Counted from the first letter of the stretch, positions 56,706 through 62,105 are shown. The stretch: 64,000 bases of DNA from a virus (IMGVR_UViG_3300037337_000032:1-64000); one strand, 5' to 3'. The notes: generated by a model not told the origin, from the sequence alone. Translations and numbers: made by a program.

Positions 56706-56762
56706 TTTTATTCCTTTTAAAACAACAATAACCCTGAGTATTACTCAGGGTATTTGTAAATT

Positions 56763-56792
56763 ATTATAGCATAGAATTTATAATAATTCAAG
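56763..56792 (-). promoter_or_regulatory. Sigma70-like late promoter for fibre cassette
   Basis: CTTGAATTATTATAAATTCTATGCTATAAT on minus strand. Confidence 0.65.
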
Positions 56793-56798
56793 TAACAT

Positions 56799-57167
56799 TT
56801 AATGTTTATTTAATCTGTATCTTACACTATCAGGTAGTTTACCACCTTCACTGGTATTCCAGCCCATATTCTTAAAAGGTCTGAAAATACTCTCTATGTA
56901 GTATGCTTGAGCTGCTGTGCATACGCATAATCTAGATATTATAATATCTTCTATTGCATATTCATTAAGTACAGTATGTAGTGCACTATAACTACTAGAA
57001 GTACTTTTAGCTTTTCTACAGTGCTCTTTAAATCTAACCTCTATTTCTCTAGTAGTAACACCAACGTATCCTTCTGAGAATACGTCAGTGTGTTCTTTTA
57101 AATGCAGCCAATATACATAAGCTGTTTTCTGGTTAGCCTGCGATAGACTACCTACGTTAGCCTGCAT
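56799..57167 (-). CDS. Free-standing GIY-YIG homing endonuclease (short)
   Basis: YVYW...GYVGVT....RFKEH, E...RP...GWN...GG. Confidence 0.8.
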   Translation of the reverse strand: MQANVGSLSQANQKTAYVYWLHLKEHTDVFSEGYVGVTTREIEVRFKEHCRKAKSTSSSYSALHTVLNEYAIEDIIISRLCVCTAAQAYYIESIFRPFKNMGWNTSEGGKLPDSVRYRLNKH

Positions 57168-58647: not shown

Positions 58648-61334
58648 TTATGATACTAATGAACTGCGATACTCAGGTATTACACCAGAAGCACCCGATC
58701 CAAAGGGGTTTGAACCTGTGAAGTCAGGTAGTGAAAACGTAGGAATAACTAGCTCTTTATTTAACAAAAGAAAGGCATCTGAACAAACGTCTGCAATGTC
58801 ATCTTTCTTTTTAGGGTCACCATCGAATACTTCAAGTTCATCATAAAACGCTTTGTTCCAGTCTGCTTTTACTACATTAATAAAACCAGCTTGTGCTACA
58901 CTTGAGAATGGTGCAAAGCGAGTAACCTTTGATTTAACTGGTTTAGACAACCTTACGTTGAAGCCCATCTCTCCTAATTTGCGCTGTAAATCTCTTGCAT
59001 AAGCTCCAGCAGCAGCAGCAGGATCAAGAGGGATAGATACTGTTACATCTTGACCATCATGCACTGCAGTCTCAAAGATCATTTTCTCTACGTTATGCAC
59101 TCTATCTCTCATAGACCGTAGATCTTCTACAGTATACACATTAGTACTATCCTTTGACATTAGCACGCCACGAGTCCAGTCTGGATTAGGGTACTGCTCC
59201 GAAGGCAAGCTAAAGGCAAGATCCCATGCTCTAATGCGCTTCTTAGCTCTTCCGTTAGGTAGCTCTACCTCTTGTACCCACTCGCGTTTAAACAGCCCAG
59301 AGGACTGCTGACGAGCGTACCATGAACCTAGTAGCAACCGTTCCATTTCTACTCTAGGCAATGCCTTGAGTTTAGATATATAGGTAGGATCTGCTTTCAT
59401 CAGTGGAGGGTTATCGTAGATTGTACCCGGTATGAACTTAAAGGTAAGAATACCAGATTGATCTCCTCCACCGTAAGTATCTTCTAGCTCTCGCTTAGTA
59501 TCCGACCACACAAGAGATCCACCTGCTACTTGCACCATGTAGCGCATCGGGTATATTTCTTTTCTAATTGGTATACCACGTTCATCTAATGCGAATTCTA
59601 CCCACTCTCTGATAAAACTATCATAGTCTGGATTGCCTGTAGCAAATGCTTGCTTCTTATAATCCACAGAAGTAGACCGTAGACGTGAAAGCAGGTAAAC
59701 TACGTTATCTTGATTCAACTGCTGTATTTCATCAAAGCCTAGAAACGTTATTTCTGAACCTTGATAGTTATACTTATCTGAAGCAGTATCTAAATATCCA
59801 AAACGTAATTTAGCTCCAGAACGAAAGATTAGCTCCTGCTCGCGCACTTTTACTCTCAGCTTAGGATCTACTTTTTTATACAGATTTACTGCTGAATCAA
59901 ATAAACCGCCTGGATTAGATATCTGTTTAGTAGTTCTTCTGAAGATTACACCACGAGTTCTAGGGTGGTGACAGAACTTCAGGAATGCACCTAAAAGACA
60001 GTGCGAATTATGAGTAACAATGTAATTACTCGTTAAGAATAATCTGTCTTCACCTGAAATACTTATGCATGTAGCGTAATCTGAGGCAACTTTTGTTATG
60101 CTGATTATGCGATTGCCAGTAATCTTGAACTTAGTCCTTGTACTTTTTCTAGGTAAGCTGAAGAGTTTGCTCTGATATTTACCTCTGATATATAAGTTGT
60201 ATGAATCTAAGCATGGTACCTTAGCACCTAACTTGTTTTTGTAATACGTCTTTTTAACCTTAATAGAACAAGTAAACCCAAGCGAATGCAATACCTGTTT
60301 GATATCCGAAGCTAGTACCTCAGATGCAGTAGAATAATAACAAGCACCGCCTGCGTCTACATAGCCGTCTGTATCCATCAAACCTTGTAGAAGGTTGAAA
60401 CGATCCTCTACTGTACTTCTTTTATATTCTTCTGGTATGAACTTAGTTTCAGACCTTTTACCATATAAGTTTAATTTCTTTAGTGCAGGTACTAGTTTTT
60501 GAACACCATACATAAATACATTATTAGGTTTCTCCGATGAGTACCTATTTACAGTATAACCTTCACTGCGAATTCTATCGATAATCTCTACATCTTGAGA
60601 GGTAATAGTAGCAATAGTTGACACTAAGCAGCCATCACCAATAAGCGCACCAAGTGTATATGGGGCTATATCTAACTGCTCTTTATCAAAGCCTATAGGC
60701 TCTGTAAGAGGTAGTATAGGTCTGAAACCTTTACCTAGTCTATTCAAAAGATGAAGAGTTGTATCAACCTTAACCTTGCCTCTGCCTCTAGCTTCATGGT
60801 AAGACCAAAGGTGCTCACCGCAAACATCTACAGTAGAAGCATCTTGCATCTCAACCCTGTAAATATCTACTACACCCTGTGGGAATATACCTGTTACTTT
60901 TTCCTTTGTGTTCTTGTGGGTTATTACTGTTTCGCCAATATAGATATCTTCTACATTCTTGAAACCAACATCAGTGAGCACTTTTTCACCATGTCTAAGT
61001 GCTTTACCAGAACCAGCTGCCTTTACTGTTATATGCTTCGTTAGAGCATCCCAAGTTTCCTTGGGTGTCGGACTATATCTTTGCAACTCAATGCACCTAC
61101 TGTTTCAGCTCCACTTGGAGCTTACTCCCTTGCGGGATAGTCTCTACACACGCCCGAAGTTTCCTTCTGCTTGGCTCGGTATTGCCCTCGTCTTTACGTT
61201 AGGGTTTCACCGAATTAAATAGGTTTTAAATGGAGGCGCATATGTTCACCACCATAGAATGTAATATCTGCATCACTCATTAAGAATTGTTCCTGAGCAC
61301 TAGATGCAGGTGAAAATACAATGTTACTTGACAT
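58648..61334 (-). CDS. terL: Terminase large subunit; exon 1 61334-61248, exon 2 61020-58648; contains an intein
   Basis: Spliced MSSNIVFSPASSAQEQFLMSDADITFYGG+AAGSGK|intein|S restores Walker A; Walker B FLGFDE, TGNP, RAWDLA, DD..D; mature about 487 aa. Confidence 0.92.
60007..61002 (-). mobile_element. Class-3-type intein (Ala1, 332 aa) with LAGLIDADG endonuclease in TerL Walker A
   Basis: ALRHGE start, EHLW block B, ATCISI block F, VTHN followed by Ser; LGALIGDG and LQGLMDTDG. Confidence 0.9.
61021..61247 (-). mobile_element. Self-splicing group I intron (IA2-like, 227 nt, no ORF) in terL
   Basis: Exon ends in U, intron ends in G; P1 AUGGUGGU/GCCUCCAU, P4 UUCGGU/ACCGAG, P7 GACUA/UAGUC, P7.1 and P7.2 hairpins, P9 GAAA. 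Confidence 0.92.
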
Positions 61335-61342
61335 TTATATCC

Positions 61343-61687
61343 TTAATCCGAGTTAATTACTTTTAAGCTAAATACTGGAGCATTCTGCTGCTGAATCTCA
61401 ATACCTGCTTCATCTTGTGCTTCTTCTGTGTCATACATATCTAAAGTTAATCTGCGATAGTTATCCAAAAGGATAGTTGCAGCTTTTAGCTGATTTTGAT
61501 GCGAAGCTTCTTGGTTCTTCATGATACTTGCAGCCTGTACAATAGCTTCAGCGATATGGGGCTTAATTCGCCTTAACAGCATAACCAACTCACGTTCTTT
61601 TAGTTCGCGGTTAGTTGGCTTATCACCTACAGTGTCTTGTCTAGGTGGTCTTCCCTGCGGGTTACCTGATTTACCTTTTATAAACAT
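61343..61687 (-). CDS. terS: Terminase small subunit-like protein
   Basis: F.KG.SGNP.GRP N-terminus, Q.KAA..LL; directly upstream of terL. Confidence 0.7.
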   Translation of the reverse strand: MFIKGKSGNPQGRPPRQDTVGDKPTNRELKERELVMLLRRIKPHIAEAIVQAASIMKNQEASHQNQLKAATILLDNYRRLTLDMYDTEEAQDEAGIEIQQQNAPVFSLKVINSD

Positions 61688-62019: not shown

Positions 62020-62090
62020 TGGTAGCAGAGGAAGGACTCGAACCTTCTGCATCGAGCTTATGAGACTGACGGATACCCTGAATCCCTGCG
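62020..62090 (-). tRNA. Atypical tRNA-Met(CAU)-like gene with shortened D arm and 1:72 mismatch
   Basis: CGCAGGG/CTCTGCT-A-CCA, CT CAT AA loop, GAAGG-TTCGAGT-CCTTC. Confidence 0.6.
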
Positions 62091-62105
62091 TTAATTTAGT
62101 ACTTA

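Follow-up and report, generated by a model that had tools for sequence, protein, structure and literature searches.

How does a phage make a working large terminase when the codons for one catalytic loop of that protein are interrupted twice? The question is raised by a 64,000-nucleotide (nt) stretch of viral DNA (IMGVR_UViG_3300037337_000032:1-64000, hereafter the window), in which the large terminase gene, terL, carries a group I intron and, 18 nt further on, an intein within its Walker A coding stretch. The window is part of a complete phage genome of 74.5 kb, which has terminal repeats, and near-identical DNA is present in several salt-lake metagenomes; no RNA sequencing run was found to contain this phage. 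We read the two insertions as independent selfish elements, both probably functional, and give this reading a probability of roughly 0.8. If it holds, packaging in this phage would depend on an RNA ribozyme and then on a protein-splicing domain for a single nine-residue catalytic loop.

Anatomy of the doubly interrupted terL

All parts of terL lie on the minus strand. The gene starts with an ATG at 61334, with an AAGGA ribosome-binding site about 8 nt upstream, and its first exon (61248..61334) encodes 29 amino acids (aa; MSSN...TFYGG) that align with residues 1-29 of TerL from Limnohabitans phage DC31. This exon ends at 61248, its last two codons specifying the pair of Gly that opens the Walker A loop, and a homologous exon 1 is present in most related loci whose sequence extends that far. 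It is followed by a 227-nt group I intron of IA type that lacks P2 and any open reading frame (ORF) (61021..61247), identified from Rfam, indel polymorphism and covariation. An 18-nt segment encoding AAGSGK (61003..61020) then forms the start of exon 2 and the last six N-extein residues. Next comes a class 3 intein of 332 aa (996 nt; ALRHG...VTHN; 60007..61002) with a LAGLIDADG homing endonuclease, assigned from Pfam, its signature residues, a structural model and natural alleles. The C-extein (58648..60006) encodes 452 aa plus the stop codon and contains, by Pfam, the remainder of the ATPase and an RNaseH-like nuclease domain. Its first residue, the Ser at 60006-60004, is predicted to complete GKS and to act as the +1 nucleophile.

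The uninterrupted 489-aa TerL of DC31 reads ...TLAGGAAGSGKTYTS at the Walker A site, so a normal Walker A loop results only when both inserts are removed. Exon 1, the six residues and the C-extein (62% identity) are colinear with the DC31 protein, whose loop is GGAAGSGKT. The restored protein has the ATPase and RNaseH-like domains of a Terminase_6 large terminase, with Pfam matches to both Terminase_6N and Terminase_6C. The sequence-only reading had proposed this piecewise anatomy, with RNA splicing followed by protein splicing needed to rebuild GGAAGSGKS, and the sequence, the natural alleles and the colinearity with DC31 confirm it at every coordinate, far beyond chance. It was also right that the intron is ORF-less, 227 nt leaving no room for a nuclease gene, and that the ORF list misrepresents the gene: the 812-aa ORF listed there, with a TTG start at 61086, translates intron sequence as a false N-terminus.

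Intron and intein boundaries are fixed by natural alleles that lack exactly 227 nt, exactly 996 nt, or both. In DNA alignments, two near-identical phages (L003 and L005, with C-exteins 100% and 97% identical to that of the window) lack exactly 227 nt and keep the intein. The intein-less alleles L006 and L024 (86% identical), which have neither insert and read GGAAGAGK/SHCLLG, fix the intein boundaries. L004, an allele from an independent sample, carries the two inserts together, with an intron 100% identical to that of the window. In metagenome run X6 a 10-kb contig at a depth of 55 skips exactly 227 nt. A short contig of run X3 lacks exactly 996 nt and still covers the 3′ end of the intron, although this is a weak case (73 nt, 4 mismatches). 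From the indel alone the intron boundary is ambiguous by 1 nt, and it is resolved to GGU/...G/GCA by the group I rule of a U before the 5′ site and a G at the intron end.

Other gene structures were considered and rejected. In-frame alternatives for the 3′ splice site, following ACG or the upstream AAG, would put 5-6 extra residues inside the loop, and they are also ruled out by the intron-less natural alleles, which drop exactly 227 nt. A TerL start downstream of the intron does not agree with an exon 1 that is contiguous in uninterrupted homologues and conserved in every intron-bearing lineage.

The group I intron and the class 3 intein

The sole hit to Rfam RF00028 in the genome is at 61257-61049 (64.3 bits against a gathering score of 50, E 5e-14), with the conserved U of the model at 61248. 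A canonical structure with P1 and P3 to P9.1 was written from an alignment of seven distinct introns of relatives (59-89% pairwise identity). On the minus strand of the window, P1 is formed by 61254-61247/61238-61231 and includes the U61248-G61237 wobble, P3 by 61223-61218/61101-61096, and P7 by 61144-61138/61075-61070. The remaining helices are P4, P5, P6/P6a, P7.1, P7.2, P8, P9 and P9.1, together with the P3/P7 pseudoknot and the terminal G typical of group I introns at 61021. Standard pairs fill 96.6% of the cells across the seven introns, compared with about 40% when the partner columns were slid as a control, and 36 of 64 pairs show compensatory change. These include 6/6 pairs in P3, 3/6 in P7, and 3/3 and 4/6 in P7.1 and P7.2 (helices 8 and 9), which are the helices of subgroup IA. 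The splice-site U-G pair is kept in six of the seven. A 3-bp P10 can also form between the first three bases of exon 2 and a UGC located 5′ of the guide sequence, and in three lineages it covaries when the alignment is inspected by eye (GCA/UGC in the window, GCG/CGC in L014 and GCU/AGC in L016). Selection acts on the intron RNA to keep a group I fold, and that fold is of the IA type, the usual one in phages.

Several observations on related introns were made alongside. In L005, which has no intron, synonymous changes fall exactly on the intron site, GGA GCT in place of GGT GCA (A1 columns 91-105; L005:2978-2992), and the U on which the splice-site wobble pair depends is lost. A second group I intron occurs later in terL in two relatives of the intron-only type (L020:5170-5956 and L037:2725-2939; Rfam 75 and 60 bits), followed in L020 by a 175-aa ORF with no Pfam match. 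The terL of Vibrio phage VEN, an unrelated podovirus (L156:815-3411), is split by an intron that has a homing endonuclease gene and a core about 70% identical to the window intron. Rheinheimera phage Barba1A (MK719701; L155:2333-2760) has an intron at the same site as the window, and 115 records of cultured Barba phages match. In the Barba annotation exon 1 is a hypothetical protein, 'gp093', the intron sequence is 'gp094' and terL begins only after the intron; the word "intron" is absent from the Barba genome paper.

The intein has the residues expected of class 3. Position 1 is not Cys, Ser or Thr but Ala (Ala1), block B contains His64, the C-terminus is Thr330-His331-Asn332 (60015-60007) and the +1 residue is Ser. 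Trp66 (60807-60805), Cys312 (60069-60067) and Thr330 occupy positions B:12, F:4 and G:5, the triplet by which class 3 inteins are defined (PMC2807308, PMC5050341). Among 39 distinct relatives, Ala1 is found in 29, the Trp and the Cys in 37 each, Thr-His-Asn in all 39 and a Ser or Thr at +1 in 38. Nearly all of them are inserted directly after the Gly-Lys of the P-loop, in varied ATPases, which agrees with the published description of the class (PMC2807308, PMC5050341).

The endonuclease domain matches Pfam LAGLIDADG_3 (33.7 bits against a cut-off of 22.5) as well as Hom_end. It has the two LAGLIDADG helices with their acidic residues: the motifs LGALIGDG and GLMDTDG contain Asp123 (60636-60634) and Asp212 (60369-60367), which are predicted to be catalytic and are retained in 36-37 of the relatives. 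A sequence search of the PDB with the intein gave weak matches to the gp41-1 intein only, and a fold search was required. The AlphaFold model (pLDDT 93.6) has PI-SceI, the endonuclease of the yeast VMA1 intein, as its top fold match (E 1e-17, TM 0.70), and both appear to have the same two-domain architecture of Hint and LAGLIDADG. In contrast to the window intein, PI-SceI belongs to class 1 (Cys1) and is about 120 aa longer, and the two are 16% identical in sequence. In comparisons with L003-L005, the ratio of nonsynonymous to synonymous polymorphism (pN/pS) in the intein is 0.07-0.25. It is 0.09 in the nuclease domain, similar to the extein, and purifying selection covers that domain. By sequence and model, the intein is a typical member of class 3 whose LAGLIDADG nuclease looks intact. 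The inteins of five terL lineages are 43-54% identical regardless of the identity of their exteins (31-79%), and this decoupling points to horizontal movement.

Known class 3 inteins are close to this one in several respects. The DnaB intein of mycobacteriophage Bethlehem (Tori et al. 2010, PMC2807308) likewise has no N-terminal nucleophile and combines the W-C-T triplet with a Ser or Thr at +1. The 'classic' P-loop Lys/Thr site of mycobacteriophage TerL (Kelley et al. 2016, PMC5050341) is also an insertion between Lys and Ser/Thr. Published class 3 phage inteins and the window intein have in common a LAGLIDADG domain and a phage terminase as host protein. The window intein differs in that its host is a Terminase_6-type TerL of a Pakpunavirus-like aquatic phage and its N-extein runs for six residues before an intron interrupts it.

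Linkage and mobility of the two elements

How the elements reached the same loop was addressed by comparing related alleles. The sequence-only reading had suggested that the ORF-less intron relies on the LAGLIDADG nuclease of the intein and that both spread by co-conversion as a composite homing unit. The idea of an ORF-less intron served by a neighbouring nuclease is sound, but in relatives the recurrent partner is a NUMOD4-HNH gene upstream of terL, not the intein. A gene of 209-259 aa with NUMOD4, HNH_3 and helix-turn-helix (HTH) domains (family A) occupies the interval from the DUF5681 gene to terL in L014, L015, L016-18 and L034/35. It occurs in 4/11 intron lineages and in 0/47 intron-less ones (p 0.0008). 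In a reverse test, in which IMG/VR was searched with the family-A HNH protein family, ten further loci had a full-length relative of this gene, and their TerLs are 34-51% identical to that of the window. In nine of the ten, terL exon 1 lies directly downstream, with a group I intron after it at the equivalent position; L171, the tenth, is truncated at the 5′ end and gives a short intron match only. A free-standing nuclease gene next to the interrupted terL is present in L014-18, L034/35, L158-165, L172-173 and L151. The gene directly upstream is of NUMOD4-HNH type in 13 loci, and in L151 a T5orf172 nuclease gene occupies the same slot.

One locus appears to retain the footprint of such a transfer. 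In L034, most of terL and the portal gene match the nearest intron-less relative at 95-100% identity. Across the stretch that begins at the DUF5681 gene and extends about 700 nt beyond the intron, identity falls to 58-90% (mostly 72-88% within terL), a pattern that by sequence resembles a co-conversion tract. No family-A HNH gene is found in the complete 74.5-kb genome of the window phage, and the window intron is therefore an orphan of the cassette family.

Collaborative homing, in which this layout is known, was reportedly first described for psbA of cyanophage S-PM2 with F-CphI and for T3/T7-like phages. The same layout has been shown experimentally for terL of ICP1, under that name (2023, PMC10448857), and the relatives of the window match it in having a free-standing nuclease gene directly upstream, as well as in an exon 1 that annotation pipelines miss. 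The window differs from ICP1 in that no free-standing nuclease gene is adjacent, a nuclease-bearing intein lies 18 nt downstream and the intron sits inside the Walker A motif.

IMG/VR has 80 related terL loci. The distribution of the two elements was compared across related loci clustered at 95% nucleotide identity, about 60 lineages in all. Both elements occur in 2-3 lineages, the intron alone in 8, the intein alone in 4 and neither in 45, and the association is not significant (Fisher p 0.11, or about 0.25 with L086 and L087 merged). A second terL lineage, 31% identical to that of the window, repeats all of these states: L086/L087 have both elements, 15 nt apart and in the same DNA context as the window lineage (GGTGGT^GCAG), L151 and L152 have the intron only and L153 the intein only. 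The TerL C-exteins of L086 and L151 are 93% identical but their introns only 53%, indicating that the intron was replaced there. In addition, L003 (intein only) and L004 (both) have backbone single-nucleotide polymorphisms in common that set them apart from the window, whereas between 61456 and 60977 the L004 sequence is the same as that of the window. A short tract spanning the intron was therefore exchanged on an intein-bearing allele, and such an allele cannot be cut by the intein's own nuclease.

We propose the following course of events. The pre-mRNA would self-splice at GGU/GCA to give a message for an 819-aa precursor. By the class 3 route, Cys312 in block F would attack the Lys-Ala1 bond, the N-extein would be passed to Ser+1 and Asn332 would cyclise, leaving a 487-aa TerL with the loop GGAAGSGKS. 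The LAGLIDADG nuclease would cut the intein-less terL of co-infecting relatives, into which the intein would then be copied. The intron family would normally travel as a cassette of NUMOD4-HNH-HTH gene, terL exon 1 and ORF-less intron, in the collaborative homing layout, and the window intron, with its HNH gene absent, would have arrived, or stayed, by recombination. The spacing of 18 nt would reflect two elements aiming at the same highly conserved DNA, not a built unit. On general grounds, homing of the window intein would probably drag the intron along by co-conversion, as a by-product.

Several points weigh against reading the elements as independent and functional. Four intron lineages have neither the intein nor an upstream nuclease gene (L020-23, L037, L152 and, by annotation, the Barba phages), so that the intron can persist without the HNH gene. 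The lineages counted are not independent of each other phylogenetically, and the sample is biased in that the L086 lineage was found through its intein. Both elements stand 15-18 nt apart in two unrelated terL lineages, and the counts are compatible with a weak positive association (odds ratio about 3-4). Furthermore, self-splicing, the class 3 reaction, the activity and targets of the nuclease and the route by which the intron arrived are steps that we infer.

The composite unit is unlikely when these data are taken together. It draws on the 18-nt spacing, which is well within usual co-conversion tracts, on an intron without a nuclease in a genome without the family-A HNH gene, and on the recurrence of the pair in the unrelated lineage L086/L087. 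Co-mobility would not, however, produce the independent distribution that the related terL alleles show, and which the sequence-only reading itself had named as evidence against it: all four allele states exist without significant linkage, the intron-only state is the commonest of the interrupted ones, and intein-only alleles occur in phages with C-exteins 97-100% identical to that of a phage with both. The same holds for L003 and L004, which differ by the intron on a common intein backbone that the intein nuclease could not cut, and for the 53% identity of the introns of L086 and L151 against 93% in their C-exteins. That the gene is dead, with one element no longer splicing and terL a pseudogene, or that the contig is chimeric, is very improbable. 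The genome is complete with terminal repeats, and independent samples as well as separate runs show the same arrangement. Every catalytic and structural signature is intact and under purifying selection, and terL is essential for a tailed phage.

Two further proposals can be made. The orphan intron may be retained for protection, since by splitting the target of the HNH or other nucleases of co-infecting relatives it would make its allele immune both to cutting and to marker exclusion. This does not exclude the reading of two independent elements, and we hold it to be possible, at odds well short of even. Relatives with the HNH cassette live in habitats like that of the window phage, loose ends of run X3 reveal, within the same lake series, a variant that has the intron but other DNA separating the DUF5681 gene from terL, and the synonymous changes of intron-less L005 fall exactly at the insertion site. 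However, the data are accounted for just as well if the orphan is neutral and merely difficult to excise with precision. The 30-nt loose end of run X3, which represents the alternative DNA upstream of terL, has no exact match in IMG/VR. More speculatively, and in our view doubtful, the 27-nt Walker A stretch could be a contested landing pad where the HNH-intron cassette and the class 3 intein interfere with each other's nuclease. An intron 18 nt upstream would truncate the extended, PI-SceI-like target of the intein, and the HNH target would likewise be shortened by the intein. Neither nuclease could then cut an allele occupied by both elements; such an allele would be favoured when infections are mixed, and this would explain why the intron-intein pair arose at least twice.

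Precedents, the insertion hot spot and neighbouring genes

Each component of this arrangement has been published before, from terL introns behind short first exons and collaborative homing to class 3 inteins in P-loops and genes that contain an intron as well as an intein. For the last of these, bnrdE of Bacillus prophage SPbeta is said to hold both a group I intron and an intein, as reported by Lazarevic et al. in 1998. In Pectobacterium phage CB7, nrdA and nrdB have a group I intron and an intein, and the introns carry their own HNH genes (PMC7344957). Like terL of the window, each of these is an essential phage gene for which RNA and protein splicing are both required. The window differs from CB7 in its ORF-less intron and in having the elements 18 nt apart within a nine-residue motif; we found no description of the CB7 elements as sharing a short motif. 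In the searchable literature we found no report of an intron and an intein that share one Walker A motif in tandem.

With four natural allele states, some in near-identical genomes of one lake system, and a free-standing HNH gene as a third player, the locus offers a ready-made system for asking whether selfish elements with the same target DNA cooperate, compete or protect their genome. There is also a practical side, in that annotation pipelines miss exon 1, as in the 115 records of cultured Rheinheimera Barba phages whose terL starts after the intron.

Four insertion points were found within 18 nt of the Walker A coding stretch. In most lineages the intron follows GGTGGT; in L034/35 it lies 6 nt further on; in L070 a probable mini-intein of 152 aa is inserted 9 nt further on; and the class 3 intein follows the Lys. 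The arrangement in L070 (L070:2807-3976) is GGSAG, the 152-aa insert (Cys1 ... GN), SGK, a 235-aa class-3-type intein and then Thr, so that the insertions are three codons apart. Pfam and PDB sequence searches gave no match for the 152-aa insert, and it is identified as a probable mini-intein from its Cys1, an SAEH block and its ...GN/S end.

The gene order on the minus strand is tRNA-Tyr, a DUF5681 gene, terL, a Mu-type portal gene and a small GIY-YIG-like ORF. DC31, which is filed under Pakpunavirus, has the same order, but its terL is uninterrupted and that of the window doubly interrupted. The upstream neighbour of terL encodes a 114-aa DUF5681 protein (61343..61687, minus strand; Pfam and ORF list). 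Between its stop codon and the start codon of terL there are only 8 nt (61342-61335); the slot that holds free-standing nuclease genes in relatives is empty in the window. In intron-less alleles this slot is itself a hot spot and often holds other free-standing genes, of at least three families, namely a 393-aa GIY-YIG-like family, an HNH_3-AP2 gene and a Cys-rich family of 147-180 aa with no Pfam match (seen in L006, L008, L012, L024, L026, L028, L041, L045, L051-56, L061, L072 and L081). Just after the DUF5681 gene, matches to the Rfam small RNA int-alpA were found in L034:2927-2992 and L067:1136-1202 (39-42 bits against a gathering score of 35.8). Upstream of tRNA-Tyr, a tRNA-like stretch ending in CCA was spotted by eye at 62022-62095 on the minus strand; neither ARAGORN nor Rfam called a tRNA there.

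The GIY-YIG-like ORF after the portal gene was considered as the nuclease of the intron and rejected, as homologues of the same size are found in the intron-less DC31 and L024. This 122-aa ORF (56750-57160) forms a sharp island of divergence, with about 100 positions differing between the window and L003/L004, compared with about 1-2% elsewhere.

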